Source of the DNA: Acetivibrio alkalicellulosi
Lineage (GTDB): Bacteria; Bacillota; Clostridia; Acetivibrionales; Acetivibrionaceae
Direction of reading: 5' to 3'
DNA: 64,000 bases
NCBI GenBank assembly: GCA_008125075.1
Contig: VLTH01000002.1
Coordinates: 1,307,965 to 1,371,964, forward strand
Both the position numbers and the translations under genes were made by a program. Of this stretch, positions 1 to 62,220 are shown one piece after another. Below the pieces are notes generated by a model. It was not told the DNA's origin and ran no database searches. It worked only from the letters and a program-made list of their open reading frames with translations. Numbering within the stretch: position 1 is the stretch's first letter; every line of letters begins with the position of its first letter.

Positions 1-3000
1 CACCTATTTTTATTTCAACTTCTTTCTGGCCTCTGCTAGTTAGTCTTGTTGCAAAAAACTCTACAACTCCACTTTCTACTGAAGTTCCCTTGTTTTCAAC
101 TGCTGCTCTTACACGAGTAAGTTCACCTTCATTTGGATGTACACCAATATCATAATATGCATATTTAGACTCTGTTTGTAAAGTATGAGGATCAATATCA
201 TAATAAATTCTGGCATATTCAAGCTTCTCTATTACAGAACCCATACTAAAGTCTATAGAATAACTTGCAGGGTAATAATACCTCTCTTGATTATTTAAAT
301 ATCCTTCAGGCTTTACCTGTGACATTGGTGTTTCATCTACTATGTAAATATATCCATTATTTTTCCACACATTATTTCTACTTAAACTAACCTCTTCTTC
401 ACCATCAACAATCCTTGTTACAGAGCGTATTGGAGTATCTGGCAAAGGATCTTTAAGCATTAAAACCTGATACCTTGGCATTTCTGGTTTATTTGGATCT
501 TCCTCTAGAGCTGGAACACTAAATTCTAATGTAGTTTCATTTTCACCATCTGGCTGTTTTTCAACCTTCAGACTTTGAGGCACATAAATCGGAAGCCTCA
601 TTCCAGTGTTTAAATTAATCAGATAATTTGGAAATCCTGTCTCCCCTACGTCAACAAGGCTCAAAACACCATCATCCCCACTGTCGTCTAAGAATAGATT
701 GTCTTTACCTATTATTTCAGTTGATATCCCAACTATTAAAGGATTTAATTGCACTCCCTTGTAGTCTCGGTGAGTAAGTGTTGCTCTAAAGTCACGGAAC
801 TCTCCTTCAAAAGGCTCTGCTCCCTCTTCTTCCTCATACATATCCCATCTTACTAGCCAGTATCCACTTGTACGCTGACCAGGCTCTATATTACCTAAAT
901 TAAGCCTGAATCTGTTGCCTGTATTGCTTCCAAAGGATGTCTCCAATATATTAAATTCAGTTAATAATCCCGGCTGATTTGCTGAAATACTAAGCTGTCC
1001 TGAATCTATAACAAGATTTTTTGCCTCTCCATATCCCATATTTTCAGCAACCACTCCAAGCCTGAAAGGTTGACCGGATTGAACTTTTCCTGGTATATAG
1101 TAGTTTAGCTTAATCTTTGGCTGTGGATATATTGTTATCTCCTCAGGCTGAGTCTGAGTCTCTACATAACGTCCATTTACATAGTAAGACACTATTGCTC
1201 GGGCAAGATAAACCTTACCTTCAGCCTCTTGACCTCCTAAGCCTTCACCAGGTATTAGCTGCCAAGTAGCAGTCATATTATCACCTGCTGACAGGGAATC
1301 TGCCCCATCAAGAGAAGATATCCCCGTTATCCCTGTAGGTATAATAAAGTTTTGACCTGTTACATCATTTCCCTCTTCATCAGTTATAGTAACTCTTACC
1401 TCAAGATTATCCAGAGAATTATCAGGATAACCGTTTGATACCATTAAAGTAGCATCAAATGCCTGTCTCTCAAGAGTAGCTGTCTGACCAAGTTTAAGGC
1501 TTACTATCTGATAATCTCCCCCACTACTTCCGCTATTATCTTTTCTGTCTCTAATGGGGTGAAAATAGTCATACTCAAATAAATCACCCTCTGGTATATT
1601 TACTTCTATTTCTTCCTCAGTATCTTTTATCTTTAAAACAGCAGTTCTCTCACCAGGATTATACATTGGTAGAGCTCCCATAACTTCTTTTGGCGGATAC
1701 TCAGGAAGTCCTGTATCAGAATCAAAGCTTACATATTTACCCTGTAGTATTATTGCATTATAAGGCAAACCTATATCTCTGTTAATGCCACTTTTTAAAT
1801 TGTAATAACCTGGTTGTATCATGATGCTTATTCTGGCACTTCCATGGGCTGGAATTTCACCTATATAACCTCCACCAACGATGCTTATTCCCATATCTGA
1901 AAGGTTTTCTCTAAGCACTGAAGCTGTAACATCTGTAATTGCAACAAGTCCTGTATTAATCACTTGTGCCTCAACAATTACAGTTTCATTTATCTGTTTT
2001 GCTACAGTTACCCATGGTGGTACAAATCCAAATTTCGGACGTGGAATATTTGTACCAAAGGTTAACTCCAACTCAATGTCATATTTGTCTTCGATTGTAG
2101 TAGGTACAACAGTCCATTCTATTGTAACAGGCTGTACTTCCATTATAACTTCAACTAAGGCAGCATCTCTCATAGGCATTACCTGTGCAGTACCATCTAC
2201 TCTGTTTCTACCTCGTGCTCTTATTGTATAGTCGTATTCTCCCAAAGGTGTGTTATCAAATGTAACTATTCCATTACTATTAGTTCTTCCATAATAGTTT
2301 TCATAATAGGTTACTTCTTGTCCCCTTATAACCTGTATATATGGCTCTTTCCCAACAATAGTAACTTCAGCATTTTCCACCCTTTCACCTGTTTCATCAC
2401 TTACAACAAATGATAATGATCCTCTGTTTGCACTTGAAACTTCTACACCCACAGCAACCGTGGTACTATATTTTCCATCAGTTACAACTATATTATCCTG
2501 ATATTGTCCTAACGAAGTGCCCTCTGGTGGATTTATTAAAATATCAAAGCTGGTTGACTCTCCTGGTGCTAAGTTAGTCTTTTCTAGATTAACACCTCTT
2601 ATCCAAGGTAAATCTTTAGGAGATTCTAGCCTTATGTTATCCATCCTTCCAAGACCTTTATTAGTAAGGGTAATTCTTTTTACAGCATTACCACCTGGAT
2701 TCACACCTACTTTTACTCCTTTTTGCTCAGTCACCGGCATTGGTACTGCAGGTCTTAAATGAAGCTTAATATTAGATGTATACGTTGCTCCCTGAGCACT
2801 GCTAAATATCACCTGATACTCTGCTATGTCCTCACAGTCTAGAGGTGCATTGAAGTTTAGCATTACCCCACTTTTTCCTCCTGATGTAATAACAGATGAA
2901 AGTGAAGATGTATCCATTACAGCCCTCACTCCACTTTCAGGAGTAAGATTTACCAGAACTGCACTGACTCCTGTCAGGCTATGCCCTGCATGTGCCATAT

Positions 3001-6000
3001 TTTCAACAGATATAAACCTTGAAAAACTTGAATTTTTAGAGGAAACAATTGATAAATTGGATGGTGATGCCTTCATTCCCCACACAGTAAAGTCTGTAAC
3101 AGCAACGTTTCCAACACCCATTTCATATGCAAATGCATGTACATTCCATTTTCCTGCACCTAAAGTGGTAGGAAGAAAATCCATCTCAAAGTATCCATTT
3201 TCATCTGTATTCACAAAACGAATAGTTTCAGCATGCCATATTTTCATAATCTGCTTTCCATTTATAATTGCCGGAACAGGAAATGGAAGCCTTGGCTCTA
3301 GGAATAAATTTAACACTATCCTTTCATTTGCAACAGGACTTCCATCCCTAAATCTGAACTGACCAGATATTCGAACTGTTTCCCCATGTTGGTAAGCTCT
3401 TTTATCTGTATTAACTGTTGCAACAGTCTCCTGCACCATCATAATATTACTTGAAAGAGTTATATTTTCTACTCCATCCCCTACTTCAACAGTTAATCTA
3501 TATCTACCTGATTCTAATGACATGACAGGAAGCTGTCCTTTAAAAGCACCTTCTGCAAAATCATATCCAATTTCACCATCCATAATAATTTGAGCATCTC
3601 TTCTTAATGTATAAAATGCACTTATACCATCATTTGGCCCTAGAACTCTTGAAAGATCACTTGCTTTTTTCACTATTGCCCTAATAGGTATAAAGTTATC
3701 TGTTGTTGAATATACATGTGCCATAAACTGTTCACTCTGATCATGTGGATCTGGGTTAACTTGTACAACTAATGCATCAGCAACATTAAAACTCTCTTGC
3801 CAACTTCGTCTAACTCCCTCTTTTATAGGTTGCTGAACTATCCTGTCTGCTTTGTCAACAACTATTTTGACATCTACATCTCCTGTTTTTTGAGGAATCC
3901 ATGTTAAGTCCACAATTGCAGTACTATGGCCTCTTAGCCCGGAAACTTGTTTTCTGGCTACCTGCTCTCCCTCTACATAAAGCCCAACATTAAATTGATC
4001 AAATATGGAGGTTACGCTCTGATTGCTTACCCTTGCAATAAATGTTACTGGTTCTCCATACTTTATTGACATAGGTGACCACTGCACATCAGAAATATGT
4101 AAGTCAGGATAAATCATTCTTAATTCGGGTACCTTTGCATCTACTCTGATTTCATCTTTATCTCCCGTAACAATTCCTAATGGATCAGCAATAACACTTA
4201 CCGAATGACTACCGGGCCTTGCTAACCATCTTGTCCATACTTCCCTTTCTTCTCCTGCACTAAGCCCATCTATGGTAATAGTTCTTATTCTTTCTCCATT
4301 TACTACAAAATCTACATCAAACTTGTTTATTATATCAATATCCCCTGTATTTCTTACAGTTGTTTCAAATGTCAGGGATGTACCATCTGTAAGTATTGTT
4401 TCTCGTGGCAACCAAGTTACACCAGATAGTTCAATTTGAGGATAAGTCACCCTAAACTCAGGTGTAACTACACTCATGATATTATTGTCTCTGTCAAGTT
4501 CTAATAATGAGGGATCTGGGTCGTCAACTTTAACAGTTACTTCATGTTTTCCATCTTCAGGTCTTACCACAAACATAATCTCTCTAGTTTGATCAACATC
4601 AAGTACATTTACATGCTGTTTTGCTACCCACTCACCATTTATATAAAGTGATACATAAAACCTTTCAGCTCTAGCTGTACCTATATTAGCTATAGCTGCT
4701 CTGTAACCAAAGTGGCTCTCACTGTCAATATCCACTTTATCTCCTGATGTCCATGTAATATCAACTACCTTTACATCTGGAAAATTAACCTGAGTGGTAG
4801 TTAATGGAATAGATTTTGAATTATTGCTCATATCTATTTCCTTTAGGTTGTCTAGTATATCGTTGGCTACAACTTTCACAACATGAACTCCTGGTTCTGC
4901 AATCCATGTAAAAGGTACTTGAACACTCTCCCCTGGCTCAATGCTTTCATCTACCCTTACATAACCTAAATACCTGTTGTTAATATAAAATCCTGTTAAG
5001 AACCCTTGCTTATTAGCTCCATTACCTATATTACCTATGTGTGCAGTAATTTTTACCTGATCTCCCTCATCAGGGCTAATTGGTTCCCATACAATATCAT
5101 TTACAATAAGATCTGGTCTATTGTCTAGAACTTTTACCGTTACAGCATCCTCAGATACTGCTCCATTGTTGTCTGTTACAGCAAGACTTATATTGTATTG
5201 TCCTGGAATCTGATATACATGAGTAATGATTGCACCACTTTTTATAGCACCATCACCTAAATCCCATGTGTATGATACTATTCTTCCATCAGTATCTGAA
5301 GATTCGCTTCCATCTAAAGAAAGCCTGTCTCCCGAATAAATCTGCTCACTTGTTTTGATATAAGCAGTTGGAGCTTTATTTAACCTTATTTCACTATAGA
5401 GTGTATTGTTATCTAGATCAATGTCCTCAGTTCCTGGTAATGTGTCAACTACCACCTTTATATTTACAGGACTCTCCAAGTTTTTATCTGGAATCCAGCT
5501 AATAGATGCCTCTGTAGAATTCATACTTCTTACTTCAACTATAGTACTTCCAATACTACTCCATTCATCATTATCCTGAATGTAAAAGCTCACATTACCA
5601 TGAGCCTTTGCATATGCAAGGTTTTTAATAAGTGCAGTAATTTCTCCTTCTCTTTCATAAGTAGGCAATCCTGGACTTGTACTTATTTGTGTAACTGTAA
5701 GATCACTTTTTGCTGAAGGAACACCTGAAACCTGGTTTGAGTTTTCACTCTCATTTCCTGCCATATCCACTGCTCTTACAACATAGTGATAAATCACTCC
5801 ATTCTCAAGTCCAGTATCTCTATAAACAAGGCCTTTTGTACTTTCAACTAATATAAAAGGTCCTCCACTTTCAGTTGCTCTATATAGTGCATATTTTTCC
5901 ACATCATCGCTTAAGCTTCTTTCCCATGAAAGATGAAGCTCTCCACCTGAATGAGAATCCATTACTGCAAGATTTGAAGGTGCTAATGGTATCTCTCTAT

Positions 6001-9000
6001 CAACAATATACCTTTTTATAAATGAAGTTTCATTATTTCCCTTATTTATAGCTGAGGCACGTACTGCATATGTTCCAGATGCTAGATGCGACACATCCCA
6101 TATATAAGATGAAATATAGTAGTTTTCTCCTATTCCCACTTGAGGTATGTCTCCATCCATAATAATTTCGAGAATATCCTCTAAATCCAGTGTTTCACCT
6201 TGCCTTGGTGAAATATCTTCACCTATAATATGCCATATTTCATCGCCAGTAATATTAGCATATGGAGATTCTCCAAGATAAGCATATTCATATATTAGAC
6301 TTACTCCAACTGGATCACTTATAATTGTTTCTAGTTCTAAAGTGCTGTTTGTTCTAAAAAATTCATAAGGCATCATATCAAGAATCAATGGATTAGAAGC
6401 TTGATGCAGTGATCTTATATCAATATGTTCACTTATGATTTCATCATTTGAATAGTCATAAGTACTCTCACTTTCTCTTCCTAAATCGTTAACTACTGCA
6501 ACCTTATAGAAGTATTCTATTTGAGGATCCTTCATTGTATCTATAAATACATTTGAAGTGGTGCGCTCAACTATCTTCTTCCATTCTCCGTCTCTTCCTT
6601 CTTTTCTATAGAGAACATAATAACGAAAATCAGGCCTTAGTACAGGGGACCAACTAACAACCATTTGCCATTCTCCAGCTTTTACATAGAGATACTCAGG
6701 TGGTAATGGAGGGTCATTTGTCAATGTATAAGTATGTACTTTTTCTGAATAATTTCCCGCCTCATCACTTACAACAACCCTAATCTGATATTCTCCATCT
6801 GAATAAATGTAATTCCCATCTGAATCTTTTGCAAGAGTATCCCATATAACTGTAACCTCCTGCTGTGTAGCATTATGTACTTCTCCTATAAGAGTCCACT
6901 CTTCCACATCAAGGGGTCTAAATTCAAACGAGTATAATGATACACCTTTATTGTCCCGTGCATAGGCAGATATTTCAACATTTCCTCTGATTGGAGAACC
7001 ACTTACAGGAGTAAATCTTATAATTTCAGGAGGAGTTACATCTCTTCCTGGAGTTACATTTACTATGTTTGAAGGCTCACTTTCACTTCCTAAAATATTA
7101 ACTGCCGTCACCTTATAATAACTTGCACTATCTAAAGGTGCCTTATAATCTGTATAAAAAGTACTTTGAGTTCTTGCTATTAATTCGAAACTTTCAAGCT
7201 CTTCACTGTGAATACTTCTATATATTCTAAAATGATCAAAGTTTTCAGGTATTTTTACCAACTCCCAATTAAGGGTAATACCAAGTTCAATAGGGCTCGC
7301 CTCAAGAACAGGCGTATCTGGAGGTATACTGTCAATTATGTATGATACTATAGCTTCACTGCTGTTATTTGATGTATCTGTCACCACTACTTTAACAAAG
7401 TATATGCCATCTTCAACATGTTGAGTATCCCAGTCTATTACTCCTGATGTTGTTACACCTATACTTATCCATAAGTCCTCTGTCAAATCTTTAGAGTATA
7501 AAAACTCTGTATTTTTAACTTTCACATTGTCTTTTGAAACAACATTTAACCTTACTATTTCTCCAATATAACTTCCATCCGCAGGTGTTATGCTAATTAT
7601 TTCAGGTGGTGTTGTATCAGGTAAAACAGTCACCGGCAGACTTATTATACCTTCACCCTCAACTCCAAAACTGTCTATCACTGTCACTTTATATGTATAA
7701 GTAGTTCCTTCTAAAAGGTTGGTGTCAGTATATGAAGTTGAAATCAACTGACTTATAAGTTGATATTCTTCACCATTTGCACTTTTGTAAATTCTATACC
7801 TATGGACATTTTCATCCACCTTAGACCACACAACATCAACCTTAAGTTCACCAGCAGTCACAAATATTTCTTCAGGAGTGCCTGGAATTTTAATATCTGC
7901 ACTTAAAGGTTGACTCTCTTCACTTTCATTACCTGCCTTATCATATGCTGTAACAGTATATGTATATATATTATCAGTACTAACATCTTCATCAGTATAT
8001 CTGTTTATATTAGATGATCCAATCTTTTCACCATCACGGTAAACATTATAACCTTCAACTCTTACATTATCAGTTGAGTTGTTCCATATAAGGGTAATAG
8101 ATGATTGAGTTTTTGAATTAATTCTCAAGTTTCCAGGAATAGTGGGGGGCTCAGTATCAACAGCTGCCGTTACAGTTATGCTCTCACTTTCACCCGAACG
8201 ATTTCCAGCAACATCATATGCCTCAACCGTATAAACATATGTTTCATCTGGTGTTAATCCTGTATCAGTAAAGCTTGTTTGAGTTATATTTCTAATAAAG
8301 GAACCATTTCTGTATACTCTATATCCTGATACGCCTATGTTATCAGAAGATGCTGTCCATTGTATTGTAACTGAAGTAGGTGTAACTGAAACAACTTCAA
8401 CATCTTGTGGTACTGTTGGAGGTTCATTATCATATGTTACACTACTACTTATATCAGATACATTACCTGATGCATCATAGGCTTTAACTGTATATACATA
8501 TGTTCCTGGTTGTAAGTGGCTATCTGTGTATCTGGTATTTGTTGTATCTGCTATGTGAGTATCGTTTCGCAATACTTTGTATCCTGCAACTGCAGCATTG
8601 TCTGTTGAAGCAGACCAAGACAAAGATACAGAGGTATCTGTTCTTGAGCTTATACTTAAATTTCGTGGAATTGTAGGTGGTTCATCATCAACATCAGTAG
8701 TAGCACTTATAGCTTCACTGTCATCAGAAAAGTTTCTTGAAGGATCATATGCCCTTACTGTATATGTGTATTGAGTGTTTGGTGTAAGCCCCTGATCAAT
8801 ATACCTAAGAGTCCTTGTATTACCCACTCTTATACCATTTCTATATATGTCATAGCCTTCTACCTGAACATTGTCAGTAGATTCATCCCATTCTATAGTA
8901 ATTGTAGTCAATGTCTTTCCTGTTACCCTTATATTCTCAGGTACTGTAGGCGGCTGGTGGTCTGCCACATCTTCAATTAATGTATTCCAAACAGGTATTG

Positions 9001-12000
9001 AATTAAATGAGTATCCTCCTCCATCTAAAGGCTTTGTTATTACAAGTTCATTAAATCCAGAGTCGGATGGATTTTGAAATGAAACCCATTGTAGCTGGGA
9101 ACCACTTAAAATTGATCTGTGGCTTTGTGTTGCCCTAAAATTAACTATACTTGAGTTAGTAAATGTATTTCTAATTTGTGTAAAATTCCCCCTTACCTCT
9201 AAAATCCCCGATGTAAGATATCCATTGTGATTATAACGGCTTTGAGTTACAAATTGTCCTATGATCCTTACATAATCGTTTTCATTATTCATCCTGATAT
9301 ATCCATTACTATTTCCATATGAAAAACTTCCATCGGTCTGATAATTTTTGCTTTGTATTCTATAATCACCGTCTACAAAAAGCTGGCCTCCATTTATATT
9401 TATAGTTCCTCCTGCTTGTATAAGGTTGCCACCTACTGTAAGATTATACTTGTTTAAATTAAGAGTTCCACCATGAACATAAAGGCTACCTTTAATTTCT
9501 ATATCATTTTGCAAGGTACGGTTCTCTTCAATACTTATATCATAGGGCCAAACATGCCAGTTTACCTTAGCATTTGCCCCAAGAAATAAATATTCTCCTC
9601 CCTGCACAGGAGATAATGTTTCCATTATTTCTCCTGTCACCACAGTTTTAGAAGTAAACCTTACTCCATTTTGTGAAGTATTTTTAATTTCTAAAATATT
9701 AATAGTTGAATTTGAACTTGCAGAACTTTCAAAACTTATTCTTTGAAGTGAATCTCCATTAAGTACCACCTTGTGATTATCTGTAGATCTAAAGTTGTTT
9801 TGTGCACTGTGAATTTTTTGAATAAAGTCTCCTGCAACTTCTAATATACCTTCTTTAAGATAATCTAGATGACTATATTGGCTTTGGGTTACAAAATCTC
9901 CTTCAACCCTTACAACATCATCTTCATGTGTCATCTTTAAGTATCCATTACTGTAAATATATATTTTTTCATCATTTGTTGGAATCTCAGTCTGAATTTT
10001 ATAATCACCCTTAACAATTAGCTGACCTCCATTTATGTCCATGACACCACCAGACTGTATTAAATCTCCATGAACAGTTAAAACATATCCATCTAAGTCA
10101 AGTACTCCTGCTCCAAGATACAAATTACCATCATAATCTTGGTCACTTAAAAGCTTCCATCCTGTTAACTGTTCTTCTCCAGGGAATTTTATCTTACATC
10201 CATTATCTATAAATGTACTTGCATTTAACGCCTGATTAAATTCTATGCCTTCCTCTGAATAATTTTGTATTTCAAGTATGTTAAACCTAGATTGCGGAGT
10301 TTGTATAGTTACCGTTTGTAAACTTTCACCACTTAGTATTGTCCTGTGGCTTCCTGAAGCAATAAATTCGTCTCTATTCCATCTATGCGTTCTCTGTACA
10401 AAGTCTCCCTTCACTTCTAAAACACCAGCAGTTATCCTATTATTGTTTACAAAATATGACTGAGTAATAAAATTTCCTTCAACACATATATAACCGTCTG
10501 CCTTGTCCATAAATAAGTATGCATAATCTGCGTCTCCATAAGTTATATCACCCTGATTGTTTACATTTTCTGTCTGTATCCGGTAATCTCCTTTTACAAT
10601 AAGCTCTCCACCATTTATATTCAAAGTTCCTCTTGAATGTATTAGATTGCCTTTTATAGTCAGTTTTTTCTCGTTTAAATTAAATGTTCCGTTACGTATG
10701 TAAAAATTCCCTTCTATCGCCATATCATTTTGCATGGTGCGATTATCCTCTATACTCAAATCATATGGCCATATCTCCCAATTTACCTCTGCATTTACTC
10801 CCAGGTATAAATTCTTTCCTCCTGTAATAGGGGTTGATGTTTCTTTTATTTCTCCATTTACTACTACCTTTGATGTAAACTCTATTCCGCCTTCGGAGGT
10901 GTTTGTAATTTCAAGTATGTTTATAACTGAATTTGAACTAACAGAATTCTGAAAATTTACTTTTTGCATATTTTCTCCGCTTAATACCACCTTGTGATTA
11001 CTAGTAGGCCTAAAATTATTCTGTGCACTATGGATTCTATGGGTAAAGTCTCCTAAAACCTCCAACACACCTTCTGTAAGATAACTATTATGACTATGTT
11101 GACTGTGGGTTATAAAGTCTCCTTCTACTTTTACATATGCACCTTCTTCTGTCATTTTTAAATACCCATTACTATGTATGTAACTTTTATTTCCCTCTAC
11201 ATCTTCTATTTCTGTCTGAAGTCTGTAATCTCCTTCTATGTGAAGCTTTCCTCCATTTACATCCACTGTTCCTCCAGACTGTATTAAGTTACCATTTATT
11301 ATTAGTTGGTATCCATTTAAGTCTAGTACTCCTCCTCCAAGGTAAAGATCTCCATTATATACTTGATCACCTGTCAAACTCCATCCAACAATTTCTGAAC
11401 GAGGAAATATCACTATACACCCATTGTCTATAAAGACATTTGCATTTAGCGATTGAACAAATTCTACTCCTTCATCTGAATAATTTTTTATTTCAAGTAT
11501 GTTAAATCTGGATATTTGCGTTTCTAAACTGACTGTTTGCAAACCATTTCCACTTATTATAGTCCTGTGACTTCCAGTAGCAGTAAAATCATCTCTACCC
11601 CATCTATGTGTCAATTGGACAAAATCTCCTTTTACTTCTAGTATCCCCCCAGTTATCCTATTATTATTTGTATAACATGCCTGCATTATAAAATTTCCTT
11701 CAACACATATGTAGTCATCTACATTATCCATAATTAAATATGCATATTCTGCACCTACATAAGTTATATCTCCCTGATTATTTGTATTTTCTCTCTGGGT
11801 TCGGAAGTCTCCATTTACAATTAGTTCTCCACCATTTATGCTCAAAGTTCCTCTTGCGTGTATCAAGTTTCCTTCCACTATCAGCTTGTAGCCATTTAAA
11901 TTAAGTGATCCATTATCAATATATAAATCTCCAAAAACTGTGTCTTCAAATAAAGCAGTTGGAGAATTAATTACTGTTTTTTCCCTTGGTGTAGTAACAT

Positions 12001-12790
12001 ATAATTCATTGCTAGGCTCTGAGATACTTCCTTCTATATCTACTGCCTTTATGGTAAATATATAATGTGTATAAGGTGAAAGATTTTCTATTATACATGA
12101 TGTATACATAGCATCAACTGTTTTAATTAGAGAATTGTCTTCATAAATATTATAATAACTTATATCTTCATTATCTGAACCTTCTGTCCACTCTAATTCT
12201 ACTTTTGTACTGGTCTTTGATTTCAATACAAGATTTTGTGGTGCTAAAGGAGTTAAAACATCTTCTTCAGTTAGCATTTCATTGTCTTCTATTAGTTCTT
12301 CTGTTTCCTCTGACACCTCAGTAAAATCTTCTTCAGCTCCTGATTCTACCAACTCATCTTCAAAGTCAATCCCTTCTAAAGCATCTAATTTCATACCTTC
12401 TTGACCACTGATGTTCTCGTCTTTTAATCCATCTATTTCTATACTTTCACGATCATTTATGTGCTTATTTTCTAAATCCATGTCTTCTTCTATTATTAGT
12501 TCAAATACATCATCATAGACATATGCCTCTTTTGCTATATCCCCATGACCATCGGCGTACTCATCTTTTGTACTCCCATTGTCATTTATTACTTCTTCTA
12601 AGTTATGGTCATAGAGTTTCTCCTTTTCACCCACATATTCATGTTCATCATCATAAAATTGTTGATTTTTATTGATCATTTCTCCTACTGAAGCATCAGC
12701 AAGAACATATGAATTCTGATAAGAAAAACTCATGGTCAGACACATAACTATAACCATTATAAATGCCACGTACCTATTAAAAATACTCAC
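1..12790 (-). CDS. Giant secreted multi-domain surface protein, 5' part only (more than 4260 aa in window; the C-terminus lies beyond the window start). Order of parts: signal peptide, acidic region, FN3 domain, at least 5 right-handed beta-helix modules, then a long array of FN3/Ig-like domains.
   Basis: Uninterrupted minus-strand reading frame from a GTG at 12790 to position 1. My hand translation of both ends finds no stops. The six-frame track shows only short plus-strand ORFs here, which is consistent with a single partial ORF running off the window. An RBS-like AAAGGGGTG lies 7 nt upstream of the GTG. The N-terminus MSIFNRYVAFIMVIVMCLTMSF...VLADA looks like a signal peptide. The translated segment GDLYIDNGSLNLNGYKLIVEGNLIHARGTLSINGGELIVNG is typical of a parallel beta-helix. 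Further 3' along the minus strand, units of about 270-275 nt recur, each encoding the FN3-like signature AYD...GN.S. Confidence 0.8.
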   Translation of the reverse strand, partial: MSIFNRYVAFIMVIVMCLTMSFSYQNSYVLADASVGEMINKNQQFYDDEHEYVGEKEKLYDHNLEEVINDNGSTKDEYADGHGDIAKEAYVYDDVFELIIEEDMDLENKHINDRESIEIDGLKDENISGQEGMKLDALEGIDFEDELVESGAEEDFTEVSEETEELIEDNEMLTEEDVLTPLAPQNLVLKSKTSTKVELEWTEGSDNEDISYYNIYEDNSLIKTVDAMYTSCIIENLSPYTHYIFTIKAVDIEGSISEPSNELYVTTPREKTVINSPTALFEDTVFGDLYIDNGSLNLNGYKLIVEGNLIHARGTLSINGGELIVNGDFRTQRENTNNQGDITYVGAEYAYLIMDNVDDYICVEGNFIMQACYTNNNRITGGILEVKGDFVQLTHRWGRDDFTATGSHRTIISGNGLQTVSLETQISRFNILEIKNYSDEGVEFVQSLNANVFIDNGCIVIFPRSEIVGWSLTGDQVYNGDLYLGGGVLDLNGYQLIINGNLIQSGGTVDVNGGKLHIEGDYRLQTEIEDVEGNKSYIHSNGYLKMTEEGAYVKVEGDFITHSQHSHNSYLTEGVLEVLGDFTHRIHSAQNNFRPTSNHKVVLSGENMQKVNFQNSVSSNSVINILEITNTSEGGIEFTSKVVVNGEIKETSTPITGGKNLYLGVNAEVNWEIWPYDLSIEDNRTMQNDMAIEGNFYIRNGTFNLNEKKLTIKGNLIHSRGTLNINGGELIVKGDYRIQTENVNNQGDITYGDADYAYLFMDKADGYICVEGNFITQSYFVNNNRITAGVLEVKGDFVQRTHRWNRDEFIASGSHRTILSGESLQTVTIQTPQSRFNILEIQNYSEEGIEFNQALNASTFIDNGCKIKFPGEEQLTGWKLLSDQDYDGNLYLGAGVLDLDGYVLTVHGDLIQSGGVMDINGGQLIVKGDYKIQTEIPTNDEKIYIYSNGYLKMTHEDDVVRVEGDFVTQSQYSHLDYLKEGILEVAGDFIQKIHSAQNNFRSTDNHKVVLNGDSLQRISFESSASSNSTINILEIKNTSQNGVRFTSKTVVTGEIMETLSPVQGGEYLFLGANAKVNWHVWPYDISIEENRTLQNDIEIKGSLYVHGGTLNLNKYNLTVGGNLIQAGGTININGGQLFVDGDYRIQSKNYQTDGSFSYGNSNGYIRMNNENDYVRIIGQFVTQSRYNHNGYLTSGILEVRGNFTQIRNTFTNSSIVNFRATQSHRSILSGSQLQWVSFQNPSDSGFNELVITKPLDGGGYSFNSIPVWNTLIEDVADHQPPTVPENIRVTGKTLTTITIEWDESTDNVQVEGYDIYRNGIRVGNTRTLRYIDQGLTPNTQYTYTVRAYDPSRNFSDDSEAISATTDVDDEPPTIPRNLSISSRTDTSVSLSWSASTDNAAVAGYKVLRNDTHIADTTNTRYTDSHLQPGTYVYTVKAYDASGNVSDISSSVTYDNEPPTVPQDVEVVSVTPTSVTIQWTASSDNIGVSGYRVYRNGSFIRNITQTSFTDTGLTPDETYVYTVEAYDVAGNRSGESESITVTAAVDTEPPTIPGNLRINSKTQSSITLIWNNSTDNVRVEGYNVYRDGEKIGSSNINRYTDEDVSTDNIYTYTVTAYDKAGNESEESQPLSADIKIPGTPEEIFVTAGELKVDVVWSKVDENVHRYRIYKSANGEEYQLISQLISTSYTDTNLLEGTTYTYKVTVIDSFGVEGEGIISLPVTVLPDTTPPEIISITPADGSYIGEIVRLNVVSKDNVKVKNTEFLYSKDLTEDLWISIGVTTSGVIDWDTQHVEDGIYFVKVVVTDTSNNSSEAIVSYIIDSIPPDTPVLEASPIELGITLNWELVKIPENFDHFRIYRSIHSEELESFELIARTQSTFYTDYKAPLDSASYYKVTAVNILGSESEPSNIVNVTPGRDVTPPEIIRFTPVSGSPIRGNVEISAYARDNKGVSLYSFEFRPLDVEEWTLIGEVHNATQQEVTVIWDTLAKDSDGNYIYSDGEYQIRVVVSDEAGNYSEKVHTYTLTNDPPLPPEYLYVKAGEWQMVVSWSPVLRPDFRYYVLYRKEGRDGEWKKIVERTTSNVFIDTMKDPQIEYFYKVAVVNDLGRESESTYDYSNDEIISEHIDIRSLHQASNPLILDMMPYEFFRTNSTLELETIISDPVGVSLIYEYAYLGESPYANITGDEIWHIIGEDISPRQGETLDLEDILEIIMDGDIPQVGIGENYYISSYIWDVSHLASGTYAVRASAINKGNNETSFIKRYIVDREIPLAPSNLAVMDSHSGGELHLSWERSLSDDVEKYALYRATESGGPFILVESTKGLVYRDTGLENGVIYHYVVRAVDMAGNESENSNQVSGVPSAKSDLTVTQISTSPGLPTYEREGEITALIKNLAYAKAHGNVSFYIQDNDEWSSIGSTIVEVRSMNSTEASISWIPDKNLESPVNIKVVVDTLPGTEDIDLDNNTLYSEIRLNKAPTAYIKTSEQIYSGDRLSLDGSESSDTDGRIVSYTWDLGDGAIKSGAIITHVYQIPGQYNISLAVTDNNGAVSEDAVTVKVLDNRPDLIVNDIVWEPISPDEGDQVKITAHIGNIGNGANKQGFLTGFYINNRYLGYVRVDESIEPGESVQVPFTWIAEPGVHVVKVVANDILDNLKEIDMSNNSKSIPLTTTQVNFPDVKVVDITWTSGDKVDIDSESHFGYRAAIANIGTARAERFYVSLYINGEWVAKQHVNVLDVDQTREIMFVVRPEDGKHEVTVKVDDPDPSLLELDRDNNIMSVVTPEFRVTYPQIELSGVTWLPRETILTDGTSLTFETTVRNTGDIDIINKFDVDFVVNGERIRTITIDGLSAGEEREVWTRWLARPGSHSVSVIADPLGIVTGDKDEIRVDAKVPELRMIYPDLHISDVQWSPMSIKYGEPVTFIARVSNQSVTSIFDQFNVGLYVEGEQVARKQVSGLRGHSTAIVDLTWIPQKTGDVDVKIVVDKADRIVQQPIKEGVRRSWQESFNVADALVVQVNPDPHDQSEQFMAHVYSTTDNFIPIRAIVKKASDLSRVLGPNDGISAFYTLRRDAQIIMDGEIGYDFAEGAFKGQLPVMSLESGRYRLTVEVGDGVENITLSSNIMMVQETVATVNTDKRAYQHGETVRISGQFRFRDGSPVANERIVLNLFLEPRLPFPVPAIINGKQIMKIWHAETIRFVNTDENGYFEMDFLPTTLGAGKWNVHAFAYEMGVGNVAVTDFTVWGMKASPSNLSIVSSKNSSFSRFISVENMAHAGHSLTGVSAVLVNLTPESGVRAVMDTSSLSSVITSGGKSGVMLNFNAPLDCEDIAEYQVIFSSAQGATYTSNIKLHLRPAVPMPVTEQKGVKVGVNPGGNAVKRITLTNKGLGRMDNIRLESPKDLPWIRGVNLEKTNLAPGESTSFDILINPPEGTSLGQYQDNIVVTDGKYSTTVAVGVEVSSANRGSLSFVVSDETGERVENAEVTIVGKEPYIQVIRGQEVTYYENYYGRTNSNGIVTFDNTPLGEYDYTIRARGRNRVDGTAQVMPMRDAALVEVIMEVQPVTIEWTVVPTTIEDKYDIELELTFGTNIPRPKFGFVPPWVTVAKQINETVIVEAQVINTGLVAITDVTASVLRENLSDMGISIVGGGYIGEIPAHGSARISIMIQPGYYNLKSGINRDIGLPYNAIILQGKYVSFDSDTGLPEYPPKEVMGALPMYNPGERTAVLKIKDTEEEIEVNIPEGDLFEYDYFHPIRDRKDNSGSSGGDYQIVSLKLGQTATLERQAFDATLMVSNGYPDNSLDNLEVRVTITDEEGNDVTGQNFIIPTGITGISSLDGADSLSAGDNMTATWQLIPGEGLGGQEAEGKVYLARAIVSYYVNGRYVETQTQPEEITIYPQPKIKLNYYIPGKVQSGQPFRLGVVAENMGYGEAKNLVIDSGQLSISANQPGLLTEFNILETSFGSNTGNRFRLNLGNIEPGQRTSGYWLVRWDMYEEEEGAEPFEGEFRDFRATLTHRDYKGVQLNPLIVGISTEIIGKDNLFLDDSGDDGVLSLVDVGETGFPNYLINLNTGMRLPIYVPQSLKVEKQPDGENETTLEFSVPALEEDPNKPEMPRYQVLMLKDPLPDTPIRSVTRIVDGEEEVSLSRNNVWKNNGYIYIVDETPMSQVKPEGYLNNQERYYYPASYSIDFSMGSVIEKLEYARIYYDIDPHTLQTESKYAYYDIGVHPNEGELTRVRAAVENKGTSVESGVVEFFATRLTSRGQKEVEIKIG
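9150..11950 (-). repeat. Tandem intragenic repeat of alternating A/B modules, each about 600 bp (a super-repeat of about 1.2 kb, at least 2.5 copies). These encode the beta-helix modules of the giant protein.
   Basis: Near-identical stretches recur at about 9190, 9830, 10400, 11045 and 11620. For example, 11617-11700 resembles 10396-10480, and 11041-11130 resembles 9826-9915. A-type and B-type copies alternate. Confidence 0.75.
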
Positions 12791-12861
12791 AAATACACCC
12801 CTTTTTTTACCCACATAAAAATTAAACTCTGTTATTATTATTTAAGTAAGAATGGAAGATT

Positions 12862-12990
12862 GAATATATACTATTCTTCTCAAAAAGTTCTTTTTACTAA
12901 ACTTTTATACATTAAGTCTTATAGCTTAAGTTTCATAAGACTCTTTTTGAGAAAATGTAGTTCCTCTGTTTATTGCATCGAACTTACTAA
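12862..12990 (-). repeat. R4-c: a diverged copy of the roughly 120-bp R4 repeat in reverse orientation. It carries an inserted AAGTCTT...AAGACT hairpin and sits 70-200 bp upstream of the giant gene.
   Basis: 12856-12880 is identical to the reverse complement of the R4 end (tatatactattcttctcaaaaagtt). The internal block tagttcctctgtttat is conserved. Overall identity to the reverse complement of R4-a is about 70%, and there is an insertion of about 35 bp. Confidence 0.55.
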
Positions 12991-13353
12991 CTTGATTTGA
13001 GCTTACGCTGAGAAATGTATATGAGTTCATCAAATAATTAAATACTCTACTACGTAATTTCAAAACGGCTTAACAGCTTATGCAGGATATTAAATAATTT
13101 TTATTTAATTAACATTATGTATAATTATATAATTAACCACCTCTAAAATCAACTTATATTGTTTAAGAATTTAAGAAAGGTGTATTTAATATATGTGAAG
13201 AAAAATATTCCAGAAACTTAAGTTTCCCAGTCTAGAGCCAGTAAATACTCCTGGAGGCGGAGCAAGTTAGCCTTTAACATAAAAAAGTGTTTAAGTAACT
13301 TTTTGAGTTGACAAAGGGACGAAGGTGTTAACTATCGTCCCTTTGTTAAAATT

Positions 13354-13419
13354 CTTGGAACAAAGTGAAAGACTTAAAATCGAAGGGGCTCGATGCCCCG
13401 TAAATATTTCAGACATTCC
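13354..13419 (+). repeat. R1-A element (two hairpins ending in GGGGCTCGATGCCCC) fused to a right-end fragment of the R2 element (gtaaatatttcagacattcc). It probably also acts as the terminator of the binding-lipoprotein gene.
   Basis: The sequence cttggaacaaagtgaaagacttaaaatcgaaggggctcgatgcccc is shared with copies at 25633, 53585 and 48803 (the last in reverse). The final 20 nt match the right inverted repeat of R2 copies at 18162-18181 and 62275-62294. Confidence 0.7.
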
Positions 13420-15078
13420 TTAATTAAAAGGTATATACCATTTTGAATAATCCTCATATTTATTCCATATACTTGGATTTAATTCTCCTCGTATCTTCCT
13501 ATTAAATAAAGCGGCATCGTTATAAAAGTATAACCCCAAATATGGTACATCTTGGTTTATTAATCTTCTCATATTTATAAAATATGATTTCTTCCTTGAA
13601 AAGTTATTTTCCTTTAGAATAAGATCAAGATACATGTCAACCCCTTCTCTTTCGTAACCTGCTATATTAAAACCTCCTATTTCTTTTGAAGAATACATAA
13701 AAGAAATATCGGCTACTGAAGTTATTGTACATCCAATTAAAACCATGTCGAATTTACCCGAGCTAATCCTTTGATTCATTTCATCCCACGTAACCTCATC
13801 TATTTCTATTTCTATTCCTATTTCTTTTAGCTGATTTTTTATCTCATGAGCAACTTTTATTCGAGTACTGTTATCATTGTTTACCAGTAGCTCAAGCTTT
13901 AGAGGTTTATTAGCCCAACCAATTTTCTTATGAAGCACACCCTGATTGTTTTCTTCCCATCCACTTTCTAAAATAAGTTCTCTTGCCTTATTTATATTTA
14001 CTTCTTTAGAAATGATATTGGTATCATAAATCCATGTGTCAGGTATTACTGGCATCTCTGAAGCTATAGCTTCACCTGGCATAATATTATTTATTAATTT
14101 ATCTCTGTCAACAGTATAAGCTATTGCATTTCTTATTTCACTCTCTTGTAAAATACTATTGGAAAGATTAAAGGCAATAAACTCAAACTTATTACTAGGA
14201 TATTTTTTCAGTGCAATGTCTGATCTGCCAATGTACCTTATCCAAGCTGATCTATCCATATGAATTATGTCAACCTCTTTAGATTGAAAGGCATCACCAA
14301 TTGACATATTCCTTGGAAATATTTTTATAACAATTTGAGAGATATAGGGAAGGTTAATTTCATTTTCCCCTTCTCCCTCACCTCTCCACCAATTTTCATT
14401 TTTTATAAGCTTAATATGCTTATTTGCCTCATACTCTGAAAACTTATAAGGGCCAGTTCCCACTGGTCTGTTATTCCTATCCGTTGTAAGTATCTCTTCT
14501 TCGTAAAAATAGTGTTTAGGGATAATTGGAAATGACAGAAGCTCCGGAGTAAAAGAGTTAGGACTGTTTAGTTCCACTTTAAATGTCATATTGTCAACTA
14601 CTGAAAAAGCACTTATATTTTTAAGATTGATTCTATAGTGACTATTAACAGAACTACTAAGTATTACATTAAAAGTAAACTCCACATCTTCCGATGTAAA
14701 AGGTATATTATCATGCCAGTAAACATTTTCTCTTAAATAAAAAGTCCATTGAAGACCATCATCAGAAACTTCCCAACTTCTAGCAAGTAAAGGAACTGGC
14801 TTTTGTCTTCTGTCTATCTCTACGAGACTCTCAAATATAAATTCCGAATAATCTTTAACATAGGCATTTTTTGTCAGTAAAGGATTGAGTGTATCTGGCT
14901 GGGTAGAAAAAAGATTTAACACTCCACCTTCTTCAGGTCCTCTATCTATAACATCATCTAGAATATAATTTAATGGCATATTCTCTTCATCAGGTTCTTC
15001 TTCATAAATATATAATTCACAGGATGAAATAAATATACTAAATATTATTAATATGATTATAACTATAGTTTTTTTCAA
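13420..15078 (-). CDS. ABC-transporter substrate-binding lipoprotein, family 5 (oligopeptide/dipeptide-binding, OppA/DppA-like). It is an orphan: no permease or ATPase genes lie next to it.
   Basis: 552-aa ORF. The lipoprotein signal MKKTIVIIILIIFSIFISSC ends in a lipobox cysteine. Size and sequence character fit cluster-5 solute-binding proteins. I recognise the family from the translation. Confidence 0.75.
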   Translation of the reverse strand: MKKTIVIIILIIFSIFISSCELYIYEEEPDEENMPLNYILDDVIDRGPEEGGVLNLFSTQPDTLNPLLTKNAYVKDYSEFIFESLVEIDRRQKPVPLLARSWEVSDDGLQWTFYLRENVYWHDNIPFTSEDVEFTFNVILSSSVNSHYRINLKNISAFSVVDNMTFKVELNSPNSFTPELLSFPIIPKHYFYEEEILTTDRNNRPVGTGPYKFSEYEANKHIKLIKNENWWRGEGEGENEINLPYISQIVIKIFPRNMSIGDAFQSKEVDIIHMDRSAWIRYIGRSDIALKKYPSNKFEFIAFNLSNSILQESEIRNAIAYTVDRDKLINNIMPGEAIASEMPVIPDTWIYDTNIISKEVNINKARELILESGWEENNQGVLHKKIGWANKPLKLELLVNNDNSTRIKVAHEIKNQLKEIGIEIEIDEVTWDEMNQRISSGKFDMVLIGCTITSVADISFMYSSKEIGGFNIAGYEREGVDMYLDLILKENNFSRKKSYFINMRRLINQDVPYLGLYFYNDAALFNRKIRGELNPSIWNKYEDYSKWYIPFN

Positions 15079-17277: not shown

Positions 17278-17465
17278 ATCTAAAACACCTCTTTACTATT
17301 GTATATTTTGACAACTTCTACTATTAGTTTTAAAAAATCAGTCTAATTTATTTTTCACAAGCCTATTTTAGCATTTAATTATGCATAAGTCTAATTTACA
17401 TTTAAAAACGGTGAATATTTTTCTTCGCATTTATTAAATTCACCCTAAAAAATTTAGTATTTAAA

Positions 17466-17505
17466 TAAGTGAACTCGTTTTAGCTAAAGCTAAACGAGTT
17501 CACTT
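17466..17505 (-). terminator. Perfect 14-bp-stem hairpin, aagtgaactcgttt/aaacgagttcactt. Likely a terminator or processing site downstream of the small secreted-protein gene.
   Basis: The perfect inverted repeat is seen directly. The flanking T-run is weak, so the terminator function is inferred. Confidence 0.4.
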
Positions 17506-17506
17506 G

Positions 17507-17604
17507 GGAATGCTGAAAATATAACTTCAACTACTATTTCTCTTCAGGTCTTATTTGATGCCAAATAGCCCCCATGAGGAGTGCAAGTAATATTTCAGCT
17601 AATC
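17507..17604 (+). repeat. R2-a: MITE-like palindromic element, about 98 bp, with terminal inverted repeats of about 17-25 bp (GGAATGCTGAAAATATAACTTCCAC ... GTGGAAGTAATATTTCAG).
   Basis: Terminal inverted repeats are visible. Related copies lie at 18031-18181, 53469-53556 (reversed), 62221-62294 and the fragment at 13400-13419. The internal segment GGCCTTATTTGATGCCAAATAG forms a nested hairpin. Confidence 0.8.
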
Positions 17605-17619
17605 TCTATTTAAATTATA

Positions 17620-17988
17620 TTATTGTATTTGATGCATAAATACCTGTACCAAATACATTCGTGTTTCCTGAGAGTATGCTTGCATATTCTCAAAAGAATC
17701 CTCACATATTTCTTCAAATTTTTCATTTACAACTTTTTTCACATCGTCATAGTCCTTATCCTCCAATAAAATCAATACAACCCTTTCTCCATCAGTATCA
17801 GATAATTCAATTTTTTCTTTTAACACTTGGGTAATTTTTTCTTGGTCACAGTCATTGCTTGTTACTTCAAAATCATTTTGATTTTCTTCATTAAAAGTAC
17901 CAAACACCTCCTCTGAGATTGAACCCCCAAGTATTAAAACTACGTACAACACAAACATTGACAAACTAAGTGCTAACTTTTTTGCCAT
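17620..17988 (-). CDS. Small secreted hypothetical protein (signal peptide, acidic). It is flanked by two direct copies of the R2 element.
   Basis: Start taken at the second ATG, with AGGAGG 7 nt upstream. Translation: MAKKLALSLSMFVLYVVLILGGSISEEVFG.... No family recognised. Confidence 0.5.
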   Translation of the reverse strand: MAKKLALSLSMFVLYVVLILGGSISEEVFGTFNEENQNDFEVTSNDCDQEKITQVLKEKIELSDTDGERVVLILLEDKDYDDVKKVVNEKFEEICEDSFENMQAYSQETRMYLVQVFMHQIQ

Positions 17989-18030
17989 ATACATGCCTCC
18001 TTTAAAAATTTTTTTATATTTTAATATTTA

Positions 18031-18181
18031 GGAATGCTGAAAATATAACTCCCACTACTATTTCACTACAGGCCTTATTATAAGATCAAAGTGAATACTA
18101 AAAAGGTCCTGCTCAATGCTCCGAGCTTTTGTTGGTGCTAAATAGACCCCATGAAAAGTAGAAGTAATATTTCAGACAACC
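18031..18181 (+). repeat. R2-b: a longer (151 bp) copy of the R2 MITE-like element with an internal insertion.
   Basis: Its left end ggaatgctgaaaatataactcccac and right end gaagtaatatttcagac match the R2-a and R2-c termini. Confidence 0.8.
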
Positions 18182-18546
18182 CTTAATAAAATATTGTCGT
18201 AATTTTTGTTTTGTTGTCCAAGAAAATATTGTATATTAAAATTATAATTTTGTCAAACTTTCCGCACCACTTTTAGGTAATTATAGGAATATGCTTCATT
18301 AAAGTTGTATATGATTATATATTTTTGTGAACTGGTTTAGCTAAATCTAACATCAGGGCTTCAAGTGGATACTCTACTTCATCTAAAGATTACAAGAGAA
18401 ACTCTACCTTATATAAGGTGTCTTAAAATAATATAAAAAACCCTCTTGAACAAGCTGAAATCTGCCGATAAATTATATGTATATTATTTATCTTGTTATT
18501 AAACATAACTTATCTCTTATTTCTAATAATTTAAGGAGTTGATCTA

Positions 18547-25250: not shown

Positions 25251-25449
25251 GGGTGCATATTATTTAAGTGAAGAAAAATATGGAAGAAACATTGTAAAGC
25301 AATTAGTAGAGCCTGTTAATGCGACGAGGAAAGGGAGAGCATTGTTTGAGCGAAGCGAGTTTTGCTCGATGCCGAGGAGTATTTACAGGCTCTAAACTGC
25401 GAAACTTTAGTTTCTGGAATATTTTTCTTCACATTTGTTACATGCACCC
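25251..25449 (+). repeat. R3-a: a 199-bp MITE-like element with roughly 30-bp terminal inverted repeats (GGGTGCAT..TTTAAGTGAAGAAAAATAT). Its interior holds an R1-like core (gagcgaagcgag...gctcgatgcc).
   Basis: The left end gggtgcatattatttaagtgaagaaaaatat matches the reverse complement of the right end gaatatttttcttcacatttgttacatgcaccc. Fragments of the left end recur at 52674, 55143, 58585, 62163 and 12826/13180. Confidence 0.75.
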
Positions 25450-25632
25450 AACTATATCAGATAATTTGACAACTACTAACTTGCAATCAAAGAACATATC
25501 TTTGTAAATTTCTTTTTATATTATAACACATTTGTTTTTTTCTTCAATGATCTAAGTTAAAAATGGTCACCTCCTTCTAAGAATTCTAATGAAAAAAGGG
25601 GCTTAGCTAATAGCTAAAACCCTTTCTCATTA

Positions 25633-25696
25633 GAAGTCTTGGAACGAAAGTGAAAGACTTAAAAGCGAAGGGGCTCGATGCCCCAAGCTTTTATTT
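25633..25696 (+). repeat. R1-B element (hairpin 1 aagtctt/aagactt; hairpin 2 ggggctcgatgcccc; T-tract). Terminator-like on both strands.
   Basis: gaagtcttggaacgaaagtgaaagacttaaaagcgaaggggctcgatgccccaagcttttattt. It lies between the 3' end of the giant ATPase gene and the promoter region of the GGDEF-EAL gene. Confidence 0.7.
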
Positions 25697-48788: not shown

Positions 48789-48802
48789 GAGTATTAGAGC
48801 TT

Positions 48803-48852
48803 ATGGCATCGTGCCTTACCCATTTTAAGTCTTTCACTTGGTTCCAAAACTT
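48803..48852 (-). repeat. R1-D element in reverse orientation, immediately 3' of the P-type ATPase gene.
   Basis: The reverse complement reads gttttggaaccaagtgaaagacttaaaatgggtaaggcacgatgcc, which matches the R1 core. The second hairpin is altered. Confidence 0.6.
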
Positions 48853-48857
48853 CTAAT

Positions 48858-48890
48858 AAAAAAAAGTGGTATAAAACCACTTTTTTTTAT
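48858..48890. terminator. Bidirectional rho-independent terminator between the convergent P-type ATPase and PPK2 genes.
   Basis: The sequence aaaaaaagtggtataaaaccacttttttttat is a stem flanked by A-runs and T-runs on both sides. Confidence 0.8.
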
Positions 48891-50083: not shown

Positions 50084-52177
<2,094 letters not shown>

Positions 52178-52487
52178 TTATAATAAATTTATATATTACA
52201 CCACAAAAACATATTAACATAATATGTCATTTGCGAAGTAATTGCAAAAAATTACAGCAGAGTTGAATATTCCTTTATATTTTGAGGTTTTTAATTTACT
52301 TTCTAATCGCTTCATTTTATAATACGAAAACATCATAAATTTTAAGATGGTATTTTAAAAAATTTTTTTAATCTTTGAAATTTTTTTTGCAAATGGATTT
52401 TTACTAATTAATTTTAGTAAAGCATGAAGTGTCTACGTTCGTGTATTTTTTATTTAAATTAAATATTCAAATTCGACATAATTATAT

Positions 52488-52605
52488 CATATCGCAGCGG
52501 AAGCTGCAATCATAGTAGTTAAGTTCCGCTGCGATAAACAGAGGAACTATATCTTCTAAAAAGTTTGCTAAAAAAGCAAACTTTTTGAGAAGAATAGTAT
52601 ATATC
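52488..52605 (+). repeat. R4-a: a 118-bp repeat with two perfect hairpins (atcgcagcggaa...ttccgctgcgat and aaaaagtttgc...gcaaacttttt). It is about 97% identical to the copy at 61823-61940.
   Basis: The near-identical copy is visible directly. It sits 320-440 bp upstream of the xylanase start. Confidence 0.85.
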
Positions 52606-52673
52606 AGACTCTGTCATCAATAAAAAGTAGCTAAAAAATTAAAATTAATACCAGGCCTAACAGCATGACATGA

Positions 52674-52765
52674 GTGGATATTATTTAAGTGAAGAAAAAT
52701 ATGGAAGAAAGGCTTCTAATGCGACAGGATAGGGTGAGCATCCTGCCTGACATATTTCAATTGAT
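52674..52765 (+). repeat. R3-b: a truncated copy of the R3 element (left inverted repeat plus part of the interior).
   Basis: The sequence gtggatattatttaagtgaagaaaaatatggaagaaa...taatgcgacaggatagggtgagcat parallels 25255-25345. Confidence 0.65.
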
Positions 52766-52822
52766 TTTTAATCTTTTATATGATAAAATTTTTATTATTC
52801 ACTTGGAGGTGATAACAAGGTT

Positions 52823-52951
52823 ATGGATTCTAGAATTTTTATCTATTTATTTTCTGCAATAGCTGTTTTAGGTGTTTCGTTTTTTTTAATGATCCGTTCT
52901 GCAGACAAAAAACTTAAAGAATTAAAACCAAAAGCAAAAAAAAAGCGGTAA
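52823..52951 (+). CDS. Possible small (42 aa) single-pass membrane protein.
   Basis: GGAGGTGA RBS 9 nt upstream of the ATG. Translation: MDSRIFIYLFSAIAVLGVSFFLMIRSADKKLKELKPKAKKKR, a transmembrane helix followed by a basic tail. Not in the ORF track because it is shorter than 60 aa. Confidence 0.35.
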   Translation: MDSRIFIYLFSAIAVLGVSFFLMIRSADKKLKELKPKAKKKR

Positions 52952-53464: not shown

Positions 53465-53468
53465 TTAA

Positions 53469-53583: not shown

Positions 53584-53584
53584 A

Positions 53585-61817: not shown

Positions 61818-61822
61818 AAATG

Positions 61823-62210: not shown

Positions 62211-62220
62211 AAACGACATA

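Follow-up and report, generated by a model that had tools for sequence, protein, structure and literature searches.

A narrow-range family of MITE-like palindromic elements in intergenic spacers of Acetivibrio alkalicellulosi

A family of short palindromic repeats, here called R2, occupies intergenic spacers in a 64-kb stretch of DNA from Acetivibrio alkalicellulosi, which degrades cellulose in soda lakes (the window, meaning the whole of the DNA analysed), and in one other organism. Very probably, the R2 repeats arose by deletion from an insertion sequence of the cut-and-paste type, have no coding function, and were mobilised in trans by a transposase whose gene lies elsewhere in the genome. 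An initial annotation of the window had described them as non-autonomous, MITE-like palindromic elements, and this description is backed by a target-site duplication, a nested insertion, a spacer that is empty in relatives, and the lack of any Rfam match. Prokaryotic MITEs are defined as non-coding elements of less than 500 bp with inverted repeats of 4-30 bp (PMC10969869). Of the MITE characteristics tested, R2 has a length below 500 bp, no coding capacity, terminal inverted repeats, flanking direct repeats, and insertion polymorphism. A literature search for MITEs of A. alkalicellulosi and related species found no description. R2 is a new family within a class of elements that is well known, and its identification as a MITE implies no new mechanism.

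Detection and structure of the R2 copies

The window contains four full R2 copies and one end fragment, where none is expected by chance, and all five sites of the initial annotation are present within 1-2 nt of the positions first assigned to them or exactly there. The left-arm 25-mer is found with one mismatch each at 17507, 18031, and 62221, and the inner hairpin pattern at 17547 and 53505 (minus strand), while neither pattern has a match in 100 shuffles. A nhmmer profile built from a MAFFT alignment of the four window copies recovers exactly these four full copies from the 64 kb (E 1e-19 to 1e-34) together with the fragment at 13394-13427 (E 0.007), and it has no further match anywhere in the window.

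R2-a (17507-17606, plus strand) is full length and decayed. R2-b (18031-18182, plus strand) carries a 53-nt insertion (approximately 18080-18132) within the inner hairpin; this insertion occurs nowhere else in the window or among the other loci compared. R2-c (53469-53555, minus strand) lies in reverse orientation, and R2-d (62221-62294, plus strand) is a minimal copy of 74 nt, in which the arms are intact and the inner hairpin is mostly deleted. The fragment (13400-13419, plus strand) is a solo right end, GTAAATATTTCAGACATTCC. The window copies therefore range from 74 to 152 nt around a consensus of about 100 nt, and the insertion in R2-b and the deletion in R2-d agree with the earlier proposal that R2 varies in length through internal insertions and deletions.

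The consensus reads 5'-GGAA(T/C)GCTGAAAATATAACTTCCAC ... inner hairpin GGCCTTATTTGATGCCAAATAGGC ... GTGGAAGTAATATTTCAGACATTCC-3', with the ends GGAA(T/C)GCTGAAAATAT...ATATTTCAGACATTCC, and no ORF is present inside the window copies. The predicted fold of each copy is a single long hairpin with a second one nested in it, and it is more stable than that of shuffled sequence (z-scores -1.5 to -5.2). The arms are imperfect inverted repeats with one 1-nt bulge and are paired in every fold. Their length was first given as 17-25 bp, a figure that becomes 25-28 bp once the GGAATG tip is counted.

Occurrence outside the window

A scan for the exact right-arm pattern in 185,579 species, each represented by one genome, returned 69 stretches, in comparison to about 70 expected by chance according to our own estimate from pattern degeneracy and collection size. 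Full R2 elements are present in four of these 69, all from a single MAG, CAYPCH01, deposited as 'uncultured Oscillospiraceae' (GCA_964409165.1). The JGI metagenomes were scanned with a more specific pattern, giving 15 stretches, of which three are real R2 and represent the same MAG loci in LSQX01 (GCA_001577815.1). An ENA assembly of the same locus is labelled as an anaerobic-digester metagenome, and the MAG represents a biogas-reactor species. CAYPCH01 / LSQX01 contains four full copies and two end fragments, beside the four copies and one fragment of the 64-kb window. Solo end fragments thus occur in both organisms, at 13400-13419 in the window and at L061 5758-5792 and L129 ~10100-10140 in the MAG. 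Among viral contigs, the exact-pattern scan gave 32 single matches, none with R2 features, and BLAST of the R2 consensus against plasmid and phage collections gave no match. In these pattern scans of about 185,000 species genomes and the JGI metagenomes, R2 was found in only one organism besides A. alkalicellulosi. The family is unusually narrow in host range and not widespread.

The two R2-bearing sequences have repeats in common but no flanking DNA, and they differ in GC content (36-39% in the MAG and 32% in the window). The MinC protein of the MAG shares 73% identity with its A. alkalicellulosi counterpart and 79% with that of the nearest relative, indicating that the MAG is a different species.

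Evidence for insertion

In an alignment of the eight full copies, R2 similarity stops abruptly at a flanking triplet. In six of the eight, this triplet is the same at both ends and co-varies between copies. TTA/TTA flanks R2-b (18028-18030 and 18183-18185), R2-c, and the copies at L089 and L074; in the case of R2-c, the flanks are TAA at 53466-53468 and TAA at 53556-53558, which equals TTA/TTA in the orientation of the element. The L061 copy has TAA/TAA and the L054 copy TTG/TTG, while the flanks of R2-a (TTG/TAT) and R2-d (ATA/TTA) are unmatched and decayed. Given that the triplets are direct rather than inverted repeats, they are the signature of a 3-bp target-site duplication. Duplications at the R2 ends had been named in the initial annotation as a check on its proposal, and they are found here in this 3-bp form. 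Nine insertion sites were available, and the four TTA/TTA pairs could in principle be part of the element itself; the case for a target-site duplication rests on the variant pairs TAA/TAA and TTG/TTG, in combination with the reconstruction of an interrupted D5 repeat.

This reconstruction uses the L054 copy of the MAG, which is nested in the loop of a D5 repeat. Removal of the 96-nt R2 and one TTG leaves no gap at the insertion point in comparison to an intact D5 located on the same MAG contig, 2.4 kb from the nested R2. The reconstructed D5 also aligns with two D5 copies of the window without gaps, save for a 2-nt difference in loop length, and the window copies have TTA at the position of the insertion.

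Filled and empty sites were compared across species or paralogues rather than strains. The minE-mgsA spacer measures 131 nt in three independent assemblies of the MAG species, and nearly all of it is R2; its counterparts in the two closest relatives lack R2 and are 17 nt (GCA_049325575.1) and 18 nt (Logan SRR16297623) long. In A. saccincola (L127), the spacer between the J-domain and NfeD genes also lacks R2 within nine genes of conserved synteny, and it is 119 nt long in comparison to 272 nt in the window, the two being too diverged to align. Further R2-less AKR loci, from Herbivorax sp. ANBcel31, a Bacillota MAG, and four Logan contigs, were rejected as empty sites, as their synteny is broken on the R2 side.

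The same evidence bears on whether R2 could be a REPIN, consisting of two inverted REPs and mobilised as single-stranded DNA by a RAYT (IS200/IS605-like Y1) transposase. A hairpin of roughly 100 nt that lies between genes and has nearly palindromic arms would suit a REPIN, as would the company of other short repeats in mosaic spacers, which is reminiscent of BIMEs, and the fact that no DDE transposase was found nearby. However, R2 has a co-varying 3-bp duplication, the removal of which restores an empty site, and REP/REPIN or IS200/IS605 insertions are not known to make target-site duplications. Additionally, the R2 arms are not palindromic REP units, and there is no Y1_Tnp/RAYT domain in 30 window ORFs. 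An origin as a REPIN is accordingly considered highly unlikely.

Genomic context and the structured RNA alternative

All nine R2 insertions of the window and the MAG are intergenic and occur in both orientations relative to genes. The sites are AT-rich spacers, and many directly adjoin a stop codon or shortly precede a ribosome-binding site. Genes of the window carry locus tags such as Cloal_2054, Cloal_2055, and Cloal_2082. R2-a lies 13 nt past the stop codon (17620) of the minus-strand gene Cloal_2055, and a 39-nt perfect hairpin on the far side of R2-a from this gene (17467-17505) probably terminates it. At the other end of this small ORF, R2-b precedes the start codon by 36-42 nt. A consensus scan places a sigma-70-like promoter (11/12) outside R2-b at 18256-18228 on the minus strand, from which R2-b would be transcribed within the 5' UTR of Cloal_2055. 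R2-c lies 4 nt past the stop codon (53462-53464) of a 66-aa J-domain gene and is directly followed by the canonical terminator of that gene (53557-53575). R2-d is separated by 31 nt from the ATG (62326) of the GH9-CBM3 cellulase gene that follows it. The initial annotation had placed R2-c in the 5' UTR of this cellulase gene, a position that belongs to R2-d instead. The fragment is found at the 3' end of a minus-strand SBP_bac_5 gene, with the gene's stop codon on one side (TAA, read as TTA at 13420-13422 beside the fragment) and its terminator (13399-13385) on the other.

It is thus probable that R2 copies sit in UTRs, with R2-a, R2-c, and the fragment between a stop codon and a terminator, and R2-b and R2-d between a promoter region and a ribosome-binding site. 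Their hosts include the genes for the GH9 cellulase, the J-domain protein, and an ABC-type solute-binding protein. A consensus scan of every copy detected no outward promoter inside R2. For annotation, the family has practical value, as such hairpins in UTRs can be mistaken for riboswitches, terminators, or small RNAs.

These positions raise the question of whether R2 is instead a family of structured RNAs, acting as cis-regulatory UTR hairpins or as small RNAs, that was kept for its function and spread by duplication rather than by transposition. R2 folds significantly better than shuffled sequence, and its sequence is kept between two species beyond the expectation for neutral spacers. R2-b is found between a strong promoter-like site and a small ORF, R2-d precedes the GH9 start codon by only 31 nt, and the copies placed between a stop codon and a terminator would be transcribed. 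Against a function as RNA, Rfam 15 has no gathering-score match in the window, and around the four copies only chance-level matches appear at E values up to 10; membership in a known Rfam family, which the initial annotation had named as grounds for refuting its proposal, was thereby checked and not found. In RNAalifold, none of the 17 stem pairs shows compensatory changes, and the covariation term is unfavourable (+1.41). R2-a and R2-b have broken pairs, with uncompensated mismatches in adjacent stem pairs, including two in the R2-a arms (CTTCAAC / GTGCAAG). The absence of compensatory pairs argues that there is no selection on R2 RNA pairing, and on this basis the RNA family was rejected. 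The inner hairpin is also dispensable, being deleted in R2-d and split by 53 nt in R2-b, and both orientations occur beside functionally unrelated genes (minE/mgsA, dpaB, a PP-loop ATPase gene, the J-domain gene, GH9, and SBP5). Furthermore, an RNA gene explains neither the 3-bp duplications nor the nested insertion. In combination, these observations make a structured RNA family a very unlikely account of R2.

The small ORF between R2-a and R2-b

R2-a and R2-b had been reported to flank a small ORF in the same orientation, and the coordinates bear this out. The ORF, Cloal_2055 (17620-17988/17994, minus strand), encodes 122-124 aa, of which the N-terminal part includes a hydrophobic segment and the body is acidic. 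No other protein shares its 90% cluster, and a search of 1.84 billion representatives returned only the protein itself and low-complexity matches to giant repetitive proteins. As judged from these comparisons, Cloal_2055 is an orphan.

The arrangement of two same-orientation R2 copies around one ORF of 122-124 aa is what a composite or cassette-like mobile unit would show, with R2-a and R2-b as its ends and the small secreted-protein gene as its cargo, possibly with R2 in the role of an integron attC site. However, R2-b has its own TTA/TTA duplication, indicating that it inserted independently, and the outer flanks of the pair differ (TTG in comparison to TTA), so that the composite unit suggested in the initial annotation is not supported. 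R2-a and R2-b are 82% identical and differ by the 53-nt indel, and no ORF similar to the orphan Cloal_2055 is found beside any other R2 copy. As for attC sites, Pfam scans show no integrase in the 30 window ORFs covered, the R2 copies are dispersed rather than arrayed, and their ends (GGAATG... / ...CATTCC), as read from the sequence, misfit the core sites RYYYAAC / GTTRRRY. A composite unit, with or without attC-like ends, is extremely improbable. The arrangement is best explained by R2-a and R2-b having inserted independently of each other in the same AT-rich region.

Age and spread

Identity is 74-82%, with indels, among the window copies, 78-88% between window and MAG copies, and 91-96% among the MAG copies; R2 DNA of the two species reaches up to 88-93% identity. 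This star-like divergence indicates that each window copy decayed independently from a master sequence close to the MAG consensus. The window copies are old, mutated relics that are probably no longer mobile, and the MAG copies are younger. In prokaryotic MITEs, flanking direct repeats fade with age, and the targets are AT-rich and intergenic (PMC10969869).

The identity of R2 between the two species exceeds that predicted for neutral spacer DNA at 73% MinC identity. Such cross-species similarity calls for an explanation by horizontal transfer or by constraint on the sequence, and it suggests that the family may have spread horizontally at a later time. R2 is a lineage marker common to A. alkalicellulosi and the biogas-reactor species, and it hints at past exchange of transposons.

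Proposed mechanism and comparison with known systems

The most likely mechanism is that a DDE transposase acting in trans would move R2 by cut-and-paste, with staggered cleavage of the target by 3 bp. Each integration into an AT-rich spacer would then duplicate a 3-bp target, most often TTA or TAA. The initial annotation had noted that no transposase gene is present in the window. In agreement with this, Pfam scans of 30 window ORFs, which include all 23 long open frames, revealed no transposase, integrase, or Y1 domain. No autonomous parent insertion sequence with R2 ends was found among the window ORFs or in the plasmid and phage collections. MITEs of the IS5-family and PIF/Harbinger type (Tourist-like) have a 3-bp T-W-A duplication and inverted repeats that begin with GG. 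The R2 duplication is compatible with theirs in length and sequence, and the R2 ends likewise begin with GG; by this analogy the parent of R2 may have been an IS5-family or Harbinger-like element.

Two other families of Gram-positive bacteria, RUP in pneumococcus and bcr1 in the Bacillus cereus group, resemble R2 in being non-autonomous and intergenic elements of about 100-150 bp with inverted repeats that form long hairpins. RUP is tied to IS630-Spn1 and duplicates TA, and bcr1 has a longer T-rich duplication. In contrast, R2 has a 3-bp duplication and unrelated ends. R2 is also similar to BOX and BIME sequences in that it occupies mosaic spacers in common with at least three other short repeats (D5, D6/D12, and D8). 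BOX and BIME modules, on the other hand, lack inverted repeats combined with a target duplication, whereas R2 is a discrete insertion with its own ends.

The Correia elements (CREE) of Neisseria are like R2 in being non-coding, AT-rich, and intergenic, with a length of 100-155 bp, inverted repeats of about 26 bp, and length variants that arise by internal deletion (PMC10969869). The Correia duplication is TA (PMC9330008). Unlike Correia elements, R2 has a 3-bp duplication (TTA/TAA/TTG), and the two have no sequence similarity. Neither a promoter nor an IHF site was found in R2. Correia elements are present in hundreds of copies in Proteobacteria, whereas R2 is found in only two Firmicutes of the Acetivibrio clade. 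The Correia inverted repeats form an RNA duplex that is cleaved by RNase III upon co-transcription with neighbouring genes, and effects on mRNA processing or stability are documented for both Correia and ERIC elements (PMC10969869). By analogy, R2 copies in UTRs may, through their 25-bp RNA duplexes, incidentally influence the processing or the stability of the mRNA.

A more far-reaching proposal is that R2 moved horizontally between distantly related species of the Acetivibrio clade, that its copies were co-opted as UTR hairpins, and that its transposase would be of a type so far not associated with 3-bp TWA duplications in Firmicutes. If this were true, the hairpins would set the mRNA stability or translation of neighbouring genes, including the GH9 cellulase gene. 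The proposal also takes in the D5, D6/D12, and D8 modules of the R2 spacers, which would then be more than decaying junk. As a whole, it is judged improbable.

Other repeats and genes in the window

Four repeat families, including R2, cluster in the same spacers of the window (12864-13430, 25251-25695, 52478-53700, and 61814-62300). These repeats mark the A. alkalicellulosi genome as rich in mosaic, BIME-like intergenic regions. The D5 repeat, about 125 nt in length, is common to A. alkalicellulosi and the R2-bearing MAG. It is found in the window at 52478-52603 and 61814-61940 on the plus strand and at 12864-13021 on the minus strand, and in the MAG at L054 174-390 and 2620-2731 and at L129 2713-2810. 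In D5, a GC-rich hairpin, ATCGCAGCGGAA...TTCCGCTGCGAT, precedes a second hairpin that resembles a terminator, AAAAAGTTTGC...GCAAACTTTTT, and there is no Rfam match. The mreD-PBP spacer of the MAG is filled by D5 and is 136 nt long, in comparison to 33 and 42 nt in two relatives, indicating that D5 also looks like an insertion. In its form, D5 resembles a portable terminator of the SPRITE type.

The D6/D12 repeat (GGGTGCATAT..AAGTGAAGAAAAATATTC) occurs in both orientations in the window, at 13179-13252, 25251-25289, 52674-52710, 55143-55166, and 58593-58639, and as the reverse complement at 17413-17445, 25375-25448, and 62159-62205. The pair at 25251 and 25448 bounds a unit of about 200 bp as inverted repeats, and D6/D12 may be another MITE. 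The D8 repeat has the motif ..TTGGAGYGAARTGAAAGRC..AAAATCGAWGGGGC-TCGAT-GCCCC and is found in the window at 13342-13399, 25620-25695, 53572-53645, and 53639-53697, at 48798-48864 as the reverse complement, and in the MAG at L129 ~10026-10085. Its GC hairpin is a predicted reverse-strand terminator (13399-13385). In the MAG copy, the stem is changed (GAGTACCC/GGGTACTC) and the TCGAT loop and upstream motif are kept, a pattern that hints at a putative structured 3' element.

In addition to these repeats, a 48-nt stretch upstream of an MCP gene (18322-18369) is 86% identical to L117 11196-11244, in the AKR / Cu-oxidase_4 spacer of Herbivorax sp. ANBcel31, and it is the sole non-coding match between the two loci. 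NCBI tags the source proteins as 'UNVERIFIED_CONTAM' [Acetivibrio alkalicellulosi], the assembly being flagged as possibly contaminated. Synteny with A. saccincola and Herbivorax sp. ANBcel31 indicates that the region is genuine DNA of the Acetivibrio clade. Among the coding sequences, a minus-strand open frame of more than 4,280 codons (2-12841) runs past the start of the window; it contains fn3 and internal 1.2-kb repeats (9354-11928) and probably encodes a giant surface protein. Another minus-strand gene (50084-52165) encodes a GH11 xylanase that also carries a CBM2 and two CBM6 domains, joined by linkers of TTP and QQPPA tandem repeats, and these linkers account for the 9-nt periodic repeat at 51368-51483.
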